43,372 nucleotides of DNA from Escherichia phage ZCEC5, in sequence record NC_073321.1. One strand, 5' to 3'. Below, one piece after another: positions 8,317-40,736 of this stretch. The stretch's first letter is position 1, and each line of letters begins with the position of its first letter. The position numbers and the translations under genes are program-made. A model generated the notes under the pieces. That model was not told the origin of the DNA, ran no database searches, and saw only the letters and a program-made list of their open reading frames with translations.

Positions 8317-8342
8317 ACATACCTCCTGTCTAAGTTAACTGA

Positions 8343-8371
8343 ATAGTAGCCTATTATGCTGGGGTGCGCAA
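8343..8371 (-). promoter_or_regulatory. Class B promoter TTGCGC-17-TACTAT containing palindrome AATAGGCTACTATT
   Basis: Near-identical copies at 16926-16954 (-), 39509-39537 (+) and 40677-40705 (+). Confidence 0.5.
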
Positions 8372-8423
8372 ACTGTTTATTTACGTATTCCAGTTATTCC
8401 ACAGAATTGCAAATGTTGGAATA

Positions 8424-13528: not shown

Positions 13529-13941
13529 TGGGCTATTTCGAGGACTTAACAAAAGCGTTCGATGTGCCGCTGGTAGCCTTCGGAACAACCAACAGCATCA
13601 AAGTAGCGCTTGAAAACATCGACGCGCCGACGTCAACTGATACGCCGTATCTGGCAAGTTACATGTTACTGGCAGATACGGAACAGGCGGATTTGTTCTT
13701 CACGGAACAACGCTCTGGTATCTATCAGGTCGATATTAACTACGCATCGGTGAAAGGTAGCGCGCCAATCAATAAAATGGCAGACTTACTTAACACGGCG
13801 TTTAAAGCAGGTAAGTCATTTTCACGTAACGACATCTGCGCCGAGGTTCAATCGGTTAGCCTGGGGCCGCTGATTGTAGAAAACGGATGGGCCAAACGGC
13901 CATTGTCAATTAACTTTATCGCATTCACCAAGAGGCTGTGA
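13525..13941 (+). CDS. Tail terminator protein (putative)
   Basis: Position immediately upstream of major tail protein. Confidence 0.45.
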   Translation: MMGYFEDLTKAFDVPLVAFGTTNSIKVALENIDAPTSTDTPYLASYMLLADTEQADLFFTEQRSGIYQVDINYASVKGSAPINKMADLLNTAFKAGKSFSRNDICAEVQSVSLGPLIVENGWAKRPLSINFIAFTKRL

Positions 13942-13943
13942 AT

Positions 13944-15110
13944 ATGGCTACAACTCCTTTTAAGGGCGCGAATACCGCGCAATTCTATGTGGCGGAAGTG
14001 ACCCCGGGCGTAACACCAAGTAACCCGGTCTGGTCGCCGTTGCGTAACACTGGCGGCGTTCCGGCCATTACCCGCGACACGCTGACCTCCAACGAACTGG
14101 ACGGCAGCCGTGAAACTACGTCCATCCGCACCGGTAACAAACAGGTTAGTGGAGAATATGCCATCGAGCTTAGCTCGAAAAGCCAGGACGACTGGTTGGC
14201 TGGGGCTTTAGGTTCTACGTGGCAATCCGGTGTATCCTTGACTGACCTGTCAATTACCGTAGCACCGGCAGGCAAGACGTTCACCCGTGCTGATGGCAGC
14301 TTCATTACTGACGGTGTGGAAGTAGGCGACCTGATTGCGTTCACCGACTTAACGGGTGATAACGCCAAACCGTTTATCGTTACTGCGGTAGAGGCACTGG
14401 TAGTTACCGGCGCGGGCATTCAGCACACCCTCACCACAGAGACAGCCACTACCGCGGCTAAAACCGGCGACAAACTGGAAACCGGTAGCCAGTGTAAGAC
14501 GTTCTCTATTCTCACCTGGTACAAAGGCCAGTGCGGCGGGGCTGACGCGTACACACTGACCAAAGGTGTGGAAGTTTCTGGTTTTACCATCGAACAGGCT
14601 GTTAACGCGATGGTAACTGGCAGCTTCCCGTTCATCGGTCGCAGTCAGGAGATTCTCGCCACGCAGCCGTCTGGTTCTGACTTCTCCTCTGTTACGTTTG
14701 GTGACGAGCCGTTCTCCTCGGTCGACGTTTCCGTGTTCGATGGCTCAACGCCGTTGCGCTGCGACAGCCTGACCATCACCAACGATAACAGCGCGTCCGC
14801 TCAGTTCGAACTGGGCAACACTAACGTAGCGTTTGTGGAGCGTAGCCGTGCGGCTAACACCTTCTCCATCTCCGGTAAGCTGTACGACATGGCGATGATT
14901 CAGAAGTTTATCAACGAGCAGCAGGTAGAGATTAACTCTATTCTGACGGGGGTAAACGGTGCTATGTCTTTCAGTTTGAAACGCGCAGAACTTACAGCGG
15001 TTACGCCAGAAATATCTGGCCCGGAATCAATTACGCAAAGCATAGAAGGACAGTCAACAGGTAACCAGTACCAGTCGTCTATCATTATTCAGCGCATCAC
15101 CTACGCATAA
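13944..15110 (+). CDS. Major tail protein
   Basis: 388 aa, T/S/G-rich, upstream of chaperone and tape measure genes; RBS AAGAGG (GTG at 13938 also possible). Confidence 0.65.
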   Translation: MATTPFKGANTAQFYVAEVTPGVTPSNPVWSPLRNTGGVPAITRDTLTSNELDGSRETTSIRTGNKQVSGEYAIELSSKSQDDWLAGALGSTWQSGVSLTDLSITVAPAGKTFTRADGSFITDGVEVGDLIAFTDLTGDNAKPFIVTAVEALVVTGAGIQHTLTTETATTAAKTGDKLETGSQCKTFSILTWYKGQCGGADAYTLTKGVEVSGFTIEQAVNAMVTGSFPFIGRSQEILATQPSGSDFSSVTFGDEPFSSVDVSVFDGSTPLRCDSLTITNDNSASAQFELGNTNVAFVERSRAANTFSISGKLYDMAMIQKFINEQQVEINSILTGVNGAMSFSLKRAELTAVTPEISGPESITQSIEGQSTGNQYQSSIIIQRITYA

Positions 15111-15315: not shown

Positions 15316-15538
15316 CAATATTACTCCTGTACTCCCGTAACTTCTCCAGACTTTCAATTGCTTCTGCTAAGTCGGTTCCGGAGTCTTTGTGACCGCGCAG
15401 ACCCATACACAGCAGTTTCTTTAACGCATGCTGTAGCGCCGGGTCACGGATATCGAAGGCGCGTAGCACATCATAGACGTCTACTGTCATGGTGCTGCCG
15501 TGGGTGTTTGTCATTGTGCGGTTGTATTTTGAAGTCAT
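15308..15538 (-). CDS. Hypothetical protein (76 aa)
   Basis: ATGA-coupled to upstream metallophosphoesterase gene. Confidence 0.45.
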   Translation of the reverse strand: MTSKYNRTMTNTHGSTMTVDVYDVLRAFDIRDPALQHALKKLLCMGLRGHKDSGTDLAEAIESLEKLREYRSNIDE

Positions 15539-16665
15539 CCCAGCATCTCCGGTGAAATAGTTAAACGTGCGACCTCGCCATATTCGGCGCTATAAGTAAT
15601 CACATTTGCGCTACGGCCTGACATCCATCCGCCTCTGGATGCGTAGGCGTCTTTGGCCGCTAAGGTGCGGTGTTGCTCAACAATCATATTACGGCTTTCT
15701 ACAATCTTCTGGTGGTGCAGGTGGCCTACGTGGGCGTAGCTGTAAACACTCTCGCCGAACGCTTTGCGGAACTTAGCAATCATAACCGGTTCGATAGCAT
15801 CGAATCGTGCTTTATGCCCGTGGTGAAAGAACAATGTCGTTTTGCCGTGCTGCACCATCTTATAAACATCCGGCGATGTATCCACGGTAACTCGGCTGTC
15901 TTTTGAGTATAAAGTCGTGAACATTTCAGCCAGCCATACGGAGCCGACAGGGTCGTGATTTCCTTGCACGATAAGCAAGCGAACATTTTTGTGCTTAACG
16001 AGGGCCATATCGACAACACGGCGGACCATACGAATCATGTAGCGGACCAGTTTCTGGTAGCGGGTATCCGCATCCAACACATGGCGCGACTCCGGCGTAA
16101 CGGCATCAAGACTATCAAAGTGCGCGAAGTCCCCCAGCAGGTTAATAACTCCTGTTCCTGCATCTGGTGCTTTCTGAAACGCAGCATCGAACCACCGAGA
16201 GAACAGGTCTTCCGCAATCTTCATATCCCAGTCGTCGCCGCTCTCGTCCGCCCACGCCAGCATACCGAGATGAAAATCAGATACCGTGTAAAGATTGAGT
16301 AGCTTGTCGTCGCGTTTAGCGCGGGCGGCTTTAACAGGCGCAACGGGGGTAATCTCTGACTTCATGCCTTCAACCACGGCTTTCATCAACTCAATCTGCC
16401 GTTCGGCATCGGTGTCGGTCTTAACCCATTGCAACTTAGTGTTGCCAAACTCGTCCACCAGGGACGACGTTCCTTTAATTTTGTAGCCGTCCGGCACAAG
16501 GTGGCTAACGTCGCGCCCGTGGCCTACGCCTTTCTTAGCTAGCTTCGCTTTACGAATACGAATAACGCGGTCGGAGATGCCGTATTTACGGGCGATATCG
16601 ATAATTTTTGTTCCGGCGTTCAATTCTTCCTGTAGCTGTTCGTCGGTTATTTTCTTCTGGGCCAT
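15535..16665 (-). CDS. HTH-domain protein fused to Mre11/SbcD-like calcineurin-type metallophosphoesterase
   Basis: Motifs I-V in order: YTVSDFHLG, LLGDFAHFD, VQGNHD, FHHGH, VGHLHH; N-terminal helix-turn-helix-like region (IIDIARKYGISDRVIRIRK); RBS GAGGAAG. Confidence 0.7.
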   Translation of the reverse strand: MAQKKITDEQLQEELNAGTKIIDIARKYGISDRVIRIRKAKLAKKGVGHGRDVSHLVPDGYKIKGTSSLVDEFGNTKLQWVKTDTDAERQIELMKAVVEGMKSEITPVAPVKAARAKRDDKLLNLYTVSDFHLGMLAWADESGDDWDMKIAEDLFSRWFDAAFQKAPDAGTGVINLLGDFAHFDSLDAVTPESRHVLDADTRYQKLVRYMIRMVRRVVDMALVKHKNVRLLIVQGNHDPVGSVWLAEMFTTLYSKDSRVTVDTSPDVYKMVQHGKTTLFFHHGHKARFDAIEPVMIAKFRKAFGESVYSYAHVGHLHHQKIVESRNMIVEQHRTLAAKDAYASRGGWMSGRSANVITYSAEYGEVARLTISPEMLG

Positions 16666-16703
16666 GCTTACTTCCTCGTGTTTAGGATTTGTCCTATACT
16701 AGC

Positions 16704-16910
16704 TCACTTCTCGTTAACATTCGAGTTGCACGCCCAGATTAAAATAAATACCCACGGCAGCAGAACCCAACCAAGAAACAGGTTAGCCATGAATATAGCT
16801 AACTTCGCTTTATGGTTACGGAAGTACGCAACCAGGAAAGGTGCGAAATAAGCGAGCAGTGCAAACAGAATTAAGGAAACTGGTAAACTGGACATTTTAA
16901 ACCCCTTCAT
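16704..16910 (-). CDS. Superinfection immunity (Imm-like) membrane protein
   Basis: Two TM helices with pattern YFAPFLVAYFRNHKAKLAIFMANLFLGWVLLPWVFILIWA, recalled to match the T4 Imm-like family; start possibly at 16895 (RBS AAGGGG). Confidence 0.55.
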   Translation of the reverse strand: MKGFKMSSLPVSLILFALLAYFAPFLVAYFRNHKAKLAIFMANLFLGWVLLPWVFILIWACNSNVNEK

Positions 16911-16925
16911 TGTTGGTGTGAGTGA

Positions 16926-16954
16926 ATAGTACCCTATTATATTGGGGTGCGCAA
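16926..16954 (-). promoter_or_regulatory. Class B promoter TTGCGC-17-TACTAT driving the Imm/metallophosphoesterase island
   Basis: Shares 30/33 positions with the promoter at 8339-8371. Confidence 0.5.
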
Positions 16955-17019
16955 GTAATGTGATAGAATAATTTTGCGCCTAGTGTCGCACACGAAAAGC
17001 GGGTGGTTCCCGTCTGGCG

Positions 17020-17055
17020 CATTTACCATTTACCATTAACCTGTAACCTCTTAAC
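17020..17055 (+). repeat. Five tandem heptamer repeats (CATTTAC CATTTAC CATTAAC CTGTAAC CTCTTAAC)
   Basis: Direct tandem 7-8-mers immediately upstream of the tail assembly chaperone gene. Confidence 0.4.
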
Positions 17056-17069
17056 CAAAGGACTAAAGA

Positions 17070-17486
17070 ATGAAACTTTCTGATTTTTATTTCGAAGAGA
17101 AAGCACTGGTAGGCAAGAAGATGCCGATTCTGCTGCCAAACGGCGAAGACTCCGGTGAGTGGCTTAACGTCGTAAGCCCTGACGCAGATGTCGCCGTTAA
17201 AGCGGGGCGTGCTTTCATTATCGCGTACCGACGCGGGTTGGCGCGCTTTGAAGAACTGGAAAAAGCCGCCAAAGAATCCGGCGACTATACTGAATATAAT
17301 TTGGCCATTAACGAACTGGCGGAAGACCTCAACCGGCAACTTGCGGCGGAAGTCGTAAACGGCTGGAGCTTTGACGAGCCTTTCTCTAAGGAAGCGTTTA
17401 ACAAGTTGCTCGACCAGTTCAAGGCATTAGGCACACAGGTAGCCGCGTTCCATAACGCTGAGCGCAAAGCATTACAGGAAAAGTAG
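17070..17486 (+). CDS. Tail assembly chaperone (gpG-like)
   Basis: 138 aa acidic protein directly upstream of tape measure; followed by -1 frame ORF. Confidence 0.55.
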   Translation: MKLSDFYFEEKALVGKKMPILLPNGEDSGEWLNVVSPDADVAVKAGRAFIIAYRRGLARFEELEKAAKESGDYTEYNLAINELAEDLNRQLAAEVVNGWSFDEPFSKEAFNKLLDQFKALGTQVAAFHNAERKALQEK

Positions 17487-17851
17487 ACGCGCTGTACAGG
17501 TTCGCCTCCTACGAGTTTGTGGATAAGCATAAAATCATAGAGTTTGATTCTATAGCCGACGGTCACGAACAGGCGCTTATCGCAATGGGTGTAATCGATA
17601 AGAAAAAACGTGCAGCGCGACGGGGTGGGCCAGAATGCCCGCCCCTTTTTATATCCACCTTTGAGATGTACTGTGACATTAAGTTTACGCGACACGTGCG
17701 CGAGGACGCTGTAGTATTGTTCGCAAGAGAATCCGTTACTTGGCAAGACCTGAAAGCCTATCTCGATGTTACGCAAAAACAGCTTAGCCTGTTCGAGATA
17801 GACATTATCATGGGCTTAGAAGCAATCTTTGAAGGTAGAAACAATGACTGA
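17462..17851 (+). CDS. Tail assembly chaperone -1 frameshift extension (gpGT-like), candidate
   Basis: -1 frame open from 17462, overlaps last 8 codons of the G ORF and ends overlapping the tape-measure start; weak slippery site CAG GAA AAG TAG. Confidence 0.35.
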   Translation, partial: AQSITGKVDALYRFASYEFVDKHKIIEFDSIADGHEQALIAMGVIDKKKRAARRGGPECPPLFISTFEMYCDIKFTRHVREDAVVLFARESVTWQDLKAYLDVTQKQLSLFEIDIIMGLEAIFEGRNND

Positions 17852-20117
17852 TATCGCTAGCTTGATAGTACGAGTATCCGCAACCGGCGTCGATAAAGTC
17901 ACATCACAACTGAACGGGCTTACTAAAGCCGCAGGCGCTGCGGCTGCCGCCGTTGTCAGCCTGGAAACCGCTAAGCAGGTGTTCAGTGCGCTGGTGGACT
18001 CCCAGCGAAACTTCGATAAGCTGAACTCCGGCCTCATCACAATGACCGGGAGCGCTGAGAACGCGGCTAAGGCTTTCAGCGTCCTGCAACAGTTCGCGAA
18101 AGAAACCCCATACGGTCTTAACCAGGCGGTCGAGGGCTTCACTAAGCTGGTGGCCCTCGGTCTGAACCCCAGCAAAGAGGCGTTAATCTCCTACGGCAAC
18201 ACCGCAGCAGCTATGGGTAAAGACCTTAATCAGATGATTGAGGCTGTGGCGGACGCCAGTACATTTGAGTTTGAGCGACTGAAAGAGTTTGGTATCAAGT
18301 CGTCACAGCAGGCAGATACAGTGTCGTTCACGTTCCGCGGTGTTACCACCACGGTTAAGAAGAACTCCGAAGAGATCCAGAAATACCTTCTGAATATTGG
18401 TAACACTGATTTCGCCGGGGCGATGGAGACGCGCTCGAAGACCTTAGATGGTCAGTTGTCGAGCCTTGCCGACTCCTTCGATGGTCTTGTTCTTGCGGTA
18501 GCGCAATCCGGTTTTGGCGACGCCGTGGGCGAACAGGCGGCAACAGCGGAAGATGCTATTACCGCACTCACCGACGCCATAGCGTCTAATGAGATAGCAG
18601 CCACGCTCCAGGATTGGGCGACGCTGTTCAATGAATCGTTCAAGTTTATTTCTGATGCCCTGAATGACCTGGCATACGATACCGAGGACAAATCCGTGGA
18701 TATGTCCGACTCGCTGGGGACTATACCGGACGCTATCCGAGAGTGGTTGCCTGACATCCAGCAGACATTCCATGAAGTTATTGCGTGGTTCCAGCGTATT
18801 GACGATTACGCGGTAGCGTTAGGGCAGACCCTTGCCGACGTGTTTGACCCGAGCAAAACGGCAGCGCTCACATTTAAAAACCTGACCGCTGAGGCTGACG
18901 CCGCATATGCCGCCAGCATAAAGCGCGCAGAGGCCGAATCCCAGGCCATTACCAACAGGTCTAAGCAGCGTAAGAAAGAAATTGAGGAACAGCGCAAGCA
19001 ATATGACGAGCGCAAGAAGCAAGAAATTGACTTAGCCAGCCTTGTTAATAATAAGGGCGGAGCTGGCGGGGCGGGAAATACCGACGATAAAGCGGCAAAA
19101 GCAGCCGCTAAGAAAGCTGAGCAGTTGCGGAATCAGGCGCAAGACTACCTCGACACTTTGGCCCGTCAGAACAACGACGAGTTAAAGGCTATTGACGCCC
19201 AGGAACAGCAGAAACTGGCTAAAGCAAAAGAGTTTTACAGCCAGGGCGCGTTGTCTCTGAAAGAATACGAGCAAGCAAAAACAGCTATCGTCCTCGAAGC
19301 GGGACAAAAACGACAAGATGAACTGGATAAACGCCAGAAAGAAGCCTTGGAAAAGCAGCAGAAAGGCGACGACTTCATGTCTCAGATTATGGGCCAGAAT
19401 GCCACTGAGCTTGAGCTTCTAGACATCCAGGAACAGCAGAAACTGGCGGTCGCGGATAAGTACCGTGAGCAGGGGCTTATTAGTGAGACGCAGTATCAGG
19501 CCGCGCTTAACGCCATCAACGAGCAATACGCCACCAAGCGCGCCGACGCAACGGCAACCGCCTTCGGTAACATGGCCTCAAACATCGGGTCTGCGTTGGG
19601 CGAGGCTTCTGGTGCGTATAAAGCGTTCGCTATCGTACAGGCCACTATAGCCACGTACACCGCAGCTATTGAGGCGTACAAGTCTACGGCGGCTATCCCT
19701 GTTGTTGGTCCGTTCCTTGCCCCTGTAGCCGCTGCCGCAGCCGTTGGGGCGGGTATGGCGCAGATTTCCGCTATCAGGTCCGCGCGTGAACAGGGCGGTC
19801 AGTTATCCGCGGGGCAGGCTTCTACTATCGCTGAACGTGGTAAACCCGAAGTTATCATGCCCGCTGGCGCATCGCGTGTGCGCACCGCGCAGCAGATGAA
19901 AGAAATTATGGGGCAAAACGGGTCTTCTTCCGGACCGTCCAATGTTACTATCGTAAACAACACGAGTTCTCAAATCGGCAACGTATCCACTGAGCAAGAT
20001 GATGAGGGCCGTTTGCGTATCATCATTGAAGAACAGGTTGCCGCGTCTTTGCAGAACAGCAACAGTAAGATTAGCAAGGCTCGCAAGGCCACAAGAAACG
20101 CGCCGGGGTTCAAGTAA
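17844..20117 (+). CDS. Tail tape measure protein
   Basis: 757 aa, A/Q/K-rich with long predicted helices; RBS GAAGG before ATG 17844. Confidence 0.85.
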   Translation: MTDIASLIVRVSATGVDKVTSQLNGLTKAAGAAAAAVVSLETAKQVFSALVDSQRNFDKLNSGLITMTGSAENAAKAFSVLQQFAKETPYGLNQAVEGFTKLVALGLNPSKEALISYGNTAAAMGKDLNQMIEAVADASTFEFERLKEFGIKSSQQADTVSFTFRGVTTTVKKNSEEIQKYLLNIGNTDFAGAMETRSKTLDGQLSSLADSFDGLVLAVAQSGFGDAVGEQAATAEDAITALTDAIASNEIAATLQDWATLFNESFKFISDALNDLAYDTEDKSVDMSDSLGTIPDAIREWLPDIQQTFHEVIAWFQRIDDYAVALGQTLADVFDPSKTAALTFKNLTAEADAAYAASIKRAEAESQAITNRSKQRKKEIEEQRKQYDERKKQEIDLASLVNNKGGAGGAGNTDDKAAKAAAKKAEQLRNQAQDYLDTLARQNNDELKAIDAQEQQKLAKAKEFYSQGALSLKEYEQAKTAIVLEAGQKRQDELDKRQKEALEKQQKGDDFMSQIMGQNATELELLDIQEQQKLAVADKYREQGLISETQYQAALNAINEQYATKRADATATAFGNMASNIGSALGEASGAYKAFAIVQATIATYTAAIEAYKSTAAIPVVGPFLAPVAAAAAVGAGMAQISAIRSAREQGGQLSAGQASTIAERGKPEVIMPAGASRVRTAQQMKEIMGQNGSSSGPSNVTIVNNTSSQIGNVSTEQDDEGRLRIIIEEQVAASLQNSNSKISKARKATRNAPGFK

Positions 20118-33082: not shown

Positions 33083-33111
33083 ACTATAATAGCTAACTAT
33101 TCATGTGTCAA
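33083..33111 (-). promoter_or_regulatory. Class A promoter TTGACA-17-TATAGT with palindrome AATAGTTAGCTATT
   Basis: Consensus -35, 17-bp spacer carrying the palindrome. Confidence 0.55.
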
Positions 33112-35912: not shown

Positions 35913-35941
35913 ACTATAATAGCGAACTATTCACGTGTCAA
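35913..35941 (-). promoter_or_regulatory. Class A promoter TTGACA-17-TATAGT with palindrome AATAGCGAACTATT
   Basis: Divergent from the Cro-like gene promoter. Confidence 0.55.
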
Positions 35942-35945
35942 TGGG

Positions 35946-35975
35946 CTTTTCTGAAATAATTAATATGGTACTATT
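35946..35975 (+). promoter_or_regulatory. Candidate promoter/operator for the Cro-like gene
   Basis: -10 TACTAT at 35969-35974 inside imperfect palindrome AATATGGTACTATT; weak -35. Confidence 0.35.
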
Positions 35976-36005
35976 CACATATCAACTGACTAAGGAGTAA
36001 TTGAC

Positions 36006-39508: not shown

Positions 39509-39537
39509 TTGCACACCCCAACATAATAGGATACTAT
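39509..39537 (+). promoter_or_regulatory. Class B promoter TTGCAC-17-TACTAT with palindrome AATAGGATACTATT
   Basis: CTTGCACACCCCAACATAATAGGATACTATTCA, near-identical to the 8339 and 16923 promoters. Confidence 0.55.
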
Positions 39538-39571
39538 TCACTTATCGAAACGAGACAGAGGAGTGAGAGTT

Positions 39572-40676: not shown

Positions 40677-40705
40677 TTGCACACTAAGATAGAATAGGCT
40701 ACTAT
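40677..40705 (+). promoter_or_regulatory. Class B promoter TTGCAC-17-TACTAT with palindrome AATAGGCTACTATT
   Basis: Palindrome identical to the reverse complement of the 8342-8355 copy. Confidence 0.55.
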
Positions 40706-40736
40706 TCATTTACACAAACGAGAGGAGAGACAGAAG

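Follow-up and report, generated by a model that had tools for sequence, protein, structure and literature searches.

A probable divergent int-alpA-type leader RNA with proposed ACC acceptor repeats and a genome-specific 7-nt duplication upstream of the tail assembly chaperone gene of Escherichia phage ZCEC5

The window analyzed here, that is, the whole stretch of 43,372 nucleotides of Escherichia phage ZCEC5 (NC_073321.1), belongs to a K1G-like siphophage, a Kagunavirus within the Guernseyvirinae, and 114 GenBank relatives match it at 80 to 99% identity. The gene for the tail assembly chaperone (Table 1) is the first of the downstream tail operon, and its longer form is given in the K1G annotation as a joined (two-piece, "j2") CDS. 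Between the tail tube and chaperone genes lies an antisense cassette coding for a metallophosphoesterase and a superinfection immunity protein (15535-16910, minus strand). In K1G, two more minus-strand genes, coding for an ATP-binding protein and a polynucleotide kinase, are found in this cassette. The tail operon is therefore split, and the 159-nt gap at positions 16911-17069 must supply both a promoter and a leader for the downstream tail genes.

Table 1. Genes and sequence or RNA features at and around the leader of the chaperone gene, with positions in the window.
Feature	Position	Strand	Basis or remark
Tail tube gene	13938-15110	+	Pfam and K1G annotation
Metallophosphoesterase gene	15535-16665	-	Pfam and K1G annotation
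Superinfection immunity gene	16704-16910	-	Pfam and K1G annotation
Palindromic box TGAATAGTACCCTATTAT	16923-16940	+	One of 7 copies in the genome; upstream of the leader promoter
Other palindrome copies	8340-8357	+
	33086-33103; 35916-35933; 35960-35977; 39523-39540; 40691-40708	-
Second box (T)TGGGGTGCGCAAG	8358-8375; 16941-16956		Also on the minus strand, just 3' of the copies at 39523 and 40691
Extended -10 element TGaTAGAAT	16961-16969	+	Read from the sequence
Three-way-junction RNA, int-alpA type, 47 nt	16975-17021	+	Rfam match, covariation, folding
Stem P1	16975-16980 with 17016-17021
Stem P2	16983-16986 with 16990-16993		Loop CGC; preceded by J1/2, UA
J2/3, GAAAA	16994-16998
Stem P3	16999-17003 with 17009-17013		J3/1 is CU
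P3 loop UGGUU	17004-17008	+	Proposed pseudoknot donor
Variable U/A-rich spacer (most of units 1-3)	17022-17037	+	Alignment columns 50-65
Proximal acceptor AACCU (boundary of units 3 and 4)	17038-17042	+	In relatives, the homologous site co-varies with the P3 loop
Middle AACC (boundary of units 4 and 5)	17045-17048	+	A73, C75, C76 and T77 invariant
Distal acceptor AACCA (end of unit 5)	17053-17057	+	Full complement of loop UGGUU; placed as 1 nt before the Shine-Dalgarno
Shine-Dalgarno AAGGA	17058-17062	+	A86, A87, G88 and G89 invariant
Tail assembly chaperone gene (138-aa ORF)	17070-17486	+	Pfam Phage_TAC_4 (E of 8e-6); K1G annotation
Tape measure gene	17829-20117	+	Pfam TMP_3; K1G annotation

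The stretch at 17020-17055 reads CATTTAC CATTTAC CATTAAC CTGTAAC CTCTTAAC, and 14 nt (17056-17069) separate its end from the chaperone ATG. A sequence-only reading had described it as five tandem 7- to 8-mers ending 14 bp before this start codon, which is exact in both sequence and spacing. It had also called the periodicity unusual for the region of a ribosome binding site (RBS), and this held as well: 23 of 29 positions match at lag 7 over the 36 nt of the array, a score never attained in 200 shuffled genomes (mean maximum of 17.2), and the array is the single best 36-nt window of the genome when any lag from 5 to 12 is considered. Without the private unit described below, 16 of 22 positions still match. 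Of the array, Tandem Repeats Finder reported no more than the first 3.1 units (17020-17041; period of 7, score of 37), among a total of 11 arrays with low scores in the window. Only units 1 and 2 are identical, while units 4 and 5 are degenerate. The array is not a separate block, since its first two bases, C17020 and A17021, form the final two pairs of an RNA stem (P1, see below). The tail at 17020-17069 contains 4 G in 50 nt, with a G-poor stretch of about 45 nt and a CC every 7 nt, and the array was predicted to be unpaired by RNAalifold as well as by the single-sequence minimum free energy (MFE) fold.

Upstream of the array, the 159-nt gap carries a palindrome, TGAATAGTnnnCTATTAT, with seven matches in the genome at three mismatches or fewer, for 0.01 expected. 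The orientation of these copies tracks gene direction, and three of them sit between TTGACA and TATAGT, in the manner of an operator inside a sigma-70 promoter; the box thus looks operator- or promoter-like. It fits the consensus given as "phage RNA polymerase promoter" in Kagunavirus fBC-Eco01, in which promoters were predicted only (PMC9825357). A second conserved box, (T)TGGGGTGCGCAAG, is found 3' of four of the seven palindrome copies, and its copy at the tail operon supplies a weak -35 (TTGGGG) for an extended -10 promoter. The corresponding -10 box, TGnTAGAAT, is kept in most relatives at an equal distance from stem P1 and ends 6 nt ahead of G16976. It was missed in our promoter scan because it lacks a -35 match. 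From this conserved box at a fixed distance, we infer that the leader RNA starts at about G16976, the first base of P1, that is, at the foot of this stem. The time-course RNA-seq of Kagunavirus vB_Eco_K1B4 (PMC12645636) gives no start sites for this region. In the wider RNA family presented below, a TAnnnT box ending 3 to 9 nt before P1 was observed in 34 of 117 contexts, compared with 3 of 117 in a control window.

Directly 3' of the extended -10 promoter, the first part of the leader folds into a three-way junction, and the array begins inside its closing stem. To describe its conservation, we used an alignment (A2) of 37 distinct leaders from contigs of Kagunavirus, of Jersey-like phages, and of more distantly related Guernseyvirinae, in which column i corresponds to window position 16972+i and the phages have chaperone proteins 49 to 100% identical. 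Ten of the 15 pairs of the junction changed on both sides and 94% of the cells were paired; none of 500 shuffles equaled these values, and no slid register came close either. The same junction was obtained with RNAalifold and from the single-sequence MFE fold. A point against a leader RNA is its thermodynamic z-score of about 0. Because the P3 pair 16999-17013 is frequently G-U, the fold is specific to the plus-strand RNA, and a function on the minus strand was ruled out by inspection on this basis.

The junction was matched by the Rfam family RF02996 (int-alpA) at 16973-17041 on the plus strand, over the full length of the model (positions 1-71) and with 31.9 bits. The E-value was 5.9e-5 in a 351-nt scan and 0.0073 over the whole window, and this is the sole copy in the genome. 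The match appears only under E-value thresholds: it does not reach the gathering cutoff of 35.8 bits, and the whole-window Rfam scan at the gathering threshold gave no matches. When 12 loci from relatives were scanned with RF02996, five scored 28 to 33.5 bits, below the cutoff, and seven had no match at E ≤ 0.1. The window shares with the family the order of the stems and the junction nucleotides, its CCUAG, CGAAAAG, and CCGUCUGG being the conserved (C)UAG, (C)GAAAA(G), and CCGYCUGG, and the exact pattern CGAAAAGCGG-N-CCGYCTGG retrieved phage copies and unrelated family members alike. Also in common are a pyrimidine-rich linker followed by an RBS about 35 to 50 nt downstream, and an occurrence in mobile elements and phages. 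On the other hand, P1 has 6 bp in the window vs. 8 to 10 in the family, and the P3 loop has 5 nt vs. 7 to 10. The integrase and alpA-type genes that gave the family its name are absent from the context examined here, where the element lies in the tail operon of a virulent siphophage, between the superinfection immunity and chaperone genes, instead of next to an integrase. Taken with its tail, we read the element as a divergent form of the int-alpA leader that stays below the Rfam threshold, with ACC repeats as putative acceptors and a genome-specific 7-nt duplication.

The int-alpA motif comes from a survey of 224 candidate structured RNAs (Weinberg et al., 2017; PMC5737381). In the literature searched, its name occurs in one paper and there as a list entry, the main text of the survey is silent on it, and no function is reported; membership in the family therefore supplies no mechanism. 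Moreover, the RF02996 model encodes no pairs for the region 3' of the junction. Several other identities were considered for the leader. A hammerhead ribozyme, which also has a three-way junction with a GAAA strand, was rejected, as the junction strands are UA, GAAAA, and CU, CUGAUGA is absent, and no Rfam ribozyme matched at E ≤ 10. An intrinsic terminator or attenuator was likewise discarded, with no plus-strand terminator in the scan and no conserved U run after P1. By inspection, only one GGA is present, against dual CsrA sites, and no start codon for a leader peptide occurs within 16976-17069.

The part of the array directly after P1 is the least conserved part of the leader. In columns 50 to 65, which hold units 1 and 2 along with half of unit 3, relatives differ in both sequence and length, and columns 56 to 62 are filled by the window alone. 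The aligner places this private 7-nt duplication at 17028-17034, and a second ACCA (17032-17035) has arisen from it. None of the 115 GenBank relatives has the second CATTTAC, the best identity to a 68-nt query being 88.2%, and the query aligns over only 60 to 61 nt among the 25 matches listed. Similarly, the IMG/VR contigs checked contained no exact match to the duplicated form. In one IMG/VR Kagunavirus contig (L151:2489-2586), the spacer carries an independent TTAACC insertion, with three in a row where relatives have two, and such an insertion at the same place argues for slippage. Judging from these comparisons, the two perfect CATTTAC units are a private replication-slippage duplication within a slippage-prone spacer. 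In this respect the result is mostly deflationary, the perfect repeats not being a designed array. Neutral slippage in a low-complexity intergenic stretch, with repeats that are functionless as repeats, has also been considered for the array as a whole. It accounts well for the private second unit, for the TTAACC insertion and for columns that vary freely, but it covers units 1 and 2 only. In units 3 to 5, 12 columns are invariant in phages whose chaperones are only about 50% identical, and we find such an explanation improbable.

The variability of the spacer bears on a second proposal, in which a host factor would recognize the stretch at the RNA level, through either RNase E cleavage in AUUUA-like stretches or attenuation at a Rho-loading (rut) site. 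In the Rho variant, the regularly spaced pyrimidine-C dinucleotides would attenuate transcription when translation fails to start. A C-rich, G-poor, and unpaired stretch with this CC spacing, located between a promoter and the first RBS, would suit such a role. However, P1 is followed by AUUUACC in the window vs. GUCAACC, AACUACU, or GGGAUCA in relatives, so that the AUUU stretches are not conserved. Typical rut sites are also longer than the G-poor stretch seen here, and G-rich tails occur elsewhere in the family. A host-factor signal is thus quite improbable, even more so than neutral slippage. The same lack of conservation of AUUUA-type stretches weighs on the processing signal suggested in the sequence-only reading, for which we found no supporting evidence.

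In contrast to the first two units, units 3 to 5 contain three ACC or AACC motifs, spaced 7 to 8 nt apart, that are invariant in the alignment (A67, C68, and C69; A73, C75, and C76; A82, C83, and C84). The GGU of the P3 loop (G33, G34, and T35) is invariant in the subfamily as well, and both AACC at 17038-17041 and the distal AACCA are complementary to the loop UGGUU. At the proximal site, the pair between columns 36 and 66 is U-A in 33 sequences, C-G in four and broken in none. In other words, the loop U-to-C change is accompanied by a proximal A-to-G change in 4/4 sequences, while the distal site follows in 2/4. For the distal site, 98% of the cells are paired, and the pair between columns 36 and 81 is U-A in 33 sequences, C-G in two and broken in two. 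Covariation for the pseudoknot within the subfamily comes from this one column, since the other loop and site columns are invariant and thus uninformative. In the window, the loop could form 5 bp with the distal site and no more than 4 bp with either of two others, the homologous proximal site (16 nt from P1) or the new ACCA (10 nt). Owing to the duplication, the homologous site lies at +16 instead of +9 relative to P1, beyond the 4 to 13 nt of the wider family, although a new ACCA has arisen at +10. The possible Kagunavirus pseudoknot, of 4 to 5 bp, would be much weaker than those of 6 to 9 bp in other lineages, and a 5-nt loop could not easily pair over its full length unless the closing G-C pair opens. 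The CCU of the middle site is predicted to pair over 3 bp with the AGG of the Shine-Dalgarno (RNAalifold, columns 75-77 with 87-89), in columns that are invariant and free of covariation.

Because the ACC motifs are conserved and complementary to an upstream loop, they point to RNA-RNA pairing within the leader instead of a row of protein sites. A row of heptamer sites in duplex DNA for a phage or host regulator, close to the protein-binding array first proposed, could draw on a periodicity that is statistically real and on the divergent regulatory intergenic region in which the array is found. Yet the second unit exists in this genome only, units 1 and 2 are not conserved in either sequence or length, and the number of units differs between phages. 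The units are direct repeats devoid of dyad symmetry, and a 7-bp period puts successive sites on different faces of duplex DNA. Conserved ACC cores with variable flanks that co-vary with an RNA loop 30 nt upstream fit RNA pairing, and the seven-copy palindrome, about 80 bp upstream of the array, is probably a better candidate for an operator or another protein-binding site. We consider DNA sites very improbable, the least credible of the explanations weighed here. The suggestion that this stretch is non-random and regulatory stands in part: it probably is regulatory, and conservation in relatives extends to the three ACC motifs of units 3 to 5, but not to units 1 and 2, and neither of the specific roles offered for it was retained.

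Our main alternative dispenses with the loop. The array would be an autonomous, unstructured, G-poor and C/A-rich segment, acting as a standby site or translational enhancer (e.g., for protein S1) or simply as a structure-free spacer, and the conservation of ACC would be unrelated to P3. The scarcity of G over 17020-17069 and the predicted lack of pairing in the tail are in line with it. So is a sister clade (L020-L025, positions ~1390-1503; chaperones about 55% identical) that lacks the three-way junction and keeps AACCA twice just before the RBS, so that the ACC motifs might also act independently of the loop. In this clade, about 75 nt separate the start of the divergent upstream gene from the chaperone ATG. 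An autonomous segment leaves unexplained, however, why the GGU of the loop is invariant like the ACC motifs, why all four loop U-to-C changes are matched by a proximal A-to-G change, and why loops of unrelated sequence are complementary to a downstream site in about 80 lineages. It is for us a rather unlikely explanation, although less so than neutral slippage.

The comparison across lineages was made with the pattern CGAAAAGCGG-N5-20-CCGYCTGG, which found the junction in IMG/VR and in genomes (GTDB) from Proteobacteria, Planctomycetota, Aminicenantes, Chloroflexota, and others. Requiring an intact P1 left 142 distinct copies with 84 different P3 loops, of which 80 with a recognizable downstream start codon were tested. 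Most of these 80 loops have a perfect complement starting 4 to 13 nt after P1, with sequences unrelated between lineages, such as UCACUCAA/UUGAGUGA, ACCUCCC/GGGAGGU, AUCAUUAA/UUAAUGAU, AACCUACGA/UCGUAGGUU, and CAGCAC/GUGCUG. Compared with composition-matched shuffles, the proximal complement was significant at p ≤ 0.05 in 50 of the 80 loops, for 4 expected, and at p ≤ 0.01 in 25. A second complement, ending 5 to 10 nt before the start codon and thus on the Shine-Dalgarno, reached p ≤ 0.05 in 18/72 (3.6 expected). A permutation test in which loops were swapped was weak (mean of 5.6 for matched vs. 4.0 for mismatched), because many lineages share CCUUCA-like loops. Matches between a loop and a downstream site were also seen by eye in single lineages (CGGUCU/AGACCG, UGGUCA/UGACCA, GGUCC/GGACC, GUGGUU/AACCAC, and UUGGUU/AACCAA). 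With both complements above shuffles, a repeated loop complement, near the junction and again at the RBS, appears as a trait of the family, and the periodic ACC units of the phage would be its local form. The window has three ACC sites where two copies are usual.

A hairpin that follows the first site and shows the Shine-Dalgarno in its loop was predicted in 58 of 72 lineages at -3 kcal/mol or below, with a mean z-score of -1.65. It was not seen in Kagunavirus, whose tail folds at -0.6 kcal/mol; there, the hairpin of most members is cut down to the invariant 3-bp CCU/AGG stem, the only one predicted. In lineages L034 to L250 (e.g., L037, L158, L173, and L226), the loop complement occurs twice and the Shine-Dalgarno lies in the loop of a co-varying hairpin, and neither feature is part of the Rfam model.

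The genes downstream of the junction encode 112 different proteins with no common theme, most of them without a Pfam, PADLOC, or PHROG function. The few that were recognized are HNH or endonuclease VII homing nucleases, DUF6387 proteins, and replication initiators. As no gene is common to these contexts and a -10 box lies just upstream in phage copies, the element behaves as a leader cassette of mobile elements that is not tied to a particular gene. Near-identical leaders were also observed in front of differing genes, which suggests a slot for variable cargo. In a P4-like island of E. coli (L286:5785-7909; NZ_CP061754.1), the motif is found about 10 nt after the stop codon of the integrase gene, on the same strand, and is followed by genes for DUF6387, then HTH, KilAC antirepressor, Icd-like, and DUF927 primase proteins.

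The explanation that we favor, with moderate confidence, is that the array serves as the spacer and the pseudoknot acceptor sites of a cis-acting leader RNA setting the translation or stability of the chaperone-tape measure operon. Transcription from the extended -10 promoter would start at about 16976 and the first 47 nt would fold into the three-way junction, leaving the array as a single-stranded 3' tail composed of a variable spacer and three ACC/AACC acceptor motifs. Replication slippage probably added one CATTTAC to this spacer in the genome of ZCEC5 alone. The P3 loop would then pair with one of the ACC sites and close a pseudoknot, as proposed for the wider family. Pairing with the proximal site would yield a compact 5' fold and leave the Shine-Dalgarno and the RBS free, whereas pairing with the distal site, which abuts the Shine-Dalgarno, would crowd or block it. 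In this manner, the leader could set the amount of chaperone and tape measure protein translated. Structure at the 5' terminus of an mRNA impedes attack by RNase E that depends on the 5' end, and the compact fold probably also alters the lifetime of the mRNA.

Several characterized RNAs share parts of this architecture. In the preQ1-II and SAM-II riboswitches, a loop or tail pairs with a 3' segment at the Shine-Dalgarno and the fold decides on ribosome access. The pairing of a hairpin loop with a 3' segment that adjoins or overlaps the Shine-Dalgarno is common to both cases, but here no ligand is implied, two or three alternative acceptors are available, and the Shine-Dalgarno is unpaired in most copies. 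There is no sequence similarity to these riboswitches, and no Rfam riboswitch family was matched in the window scan. Class 1 exonuclease-resistant RNAs of flaviviruses have a P1-P2-P3 junction whose P3 loop pairs 3' of P1, followed by a further hairpin. The wider int-alpA-type family has the same connectivity, a likeness that concerns the topology of the secondary structure only. As for the hosts here, no 5'-to-3' exoribonuclease is known from E. coli or from most beta- and gammaproteobacteria. Finally, the leader of gene 32 in phage T4 consists of a 5' pseudoknot followed by repeats that are cooperative sites for the single-strand-binding protein encoded by the gene itself. A folded 5' part and then unstructured, short A/U-rich repeats before the start of a phage gene are found in both leaders, but the repeats described here match an RNA loop, and the downstream gene codes for a tail chaperone without known RNA binding.

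On a broader level, int-alpA-type RNAs might be a widespread leader cassette of mobile elements working as a two-state translational switch, of which the virulent Guernseyvirinae would have co-opted a cut-down version; taken as a whole, we regard this view as speculative and unlikely. The loop may pair with a nearby decoy, leaving the RBS free, or with the second copy fused to the Shine-Dalgarno, blocking it, and the conserved junction could sense a ligand or a host factor. In the phage, the three ACC acceptors may dose or time the synthesis of chaperone and tape measure protein after the antisense cassette had split the tail operon. The range of the cassette may extend from Proteobacteria to Planctomycetota, Chloroflexota, and Aminicenantes.

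The main interest of the locus thus lies in the leader family, its unannotated pseudoknot and decoy architecture, and the tractability of the phage. An entire phage subfamily (Kagunavirus and Jersey-like phages) has, before its tail assembly genes, a relative of an uncharacterized Rfam motif that scores below the cutoff, and a lytic phage is a simple and genetically tractable system in which to find the role of int-alpA RNA. The comparison of about 80 lineages suggests a pseudoknot along with a duplicated acceptor/Shine-Dalgarno arrangement, both missing from the Rfam model, which turns an orphan motif into a testable hypothesis of translational control. The spacer occurs in natural length variants of 9, 15, and 16 nt, providing ready material to study the effect of spacing on the fold.

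Two minor observations were made in the course of these scans. The 16-mer CCTGTTAACCAAAGGA is found directly before start codons in a few unrelated IMG/VR contigs devoid of the junction (L252, L256, L271, and L278), a count within chance expectation for the size of the scan. Elsewhere in the window, positions 524-582 on the plus strand gave a weak Rfam match to Betaproteobacteria_toxic_sRNA (24.3 bits vs. a cutoff of 50, E of 0.88), which is most likely due to chance.
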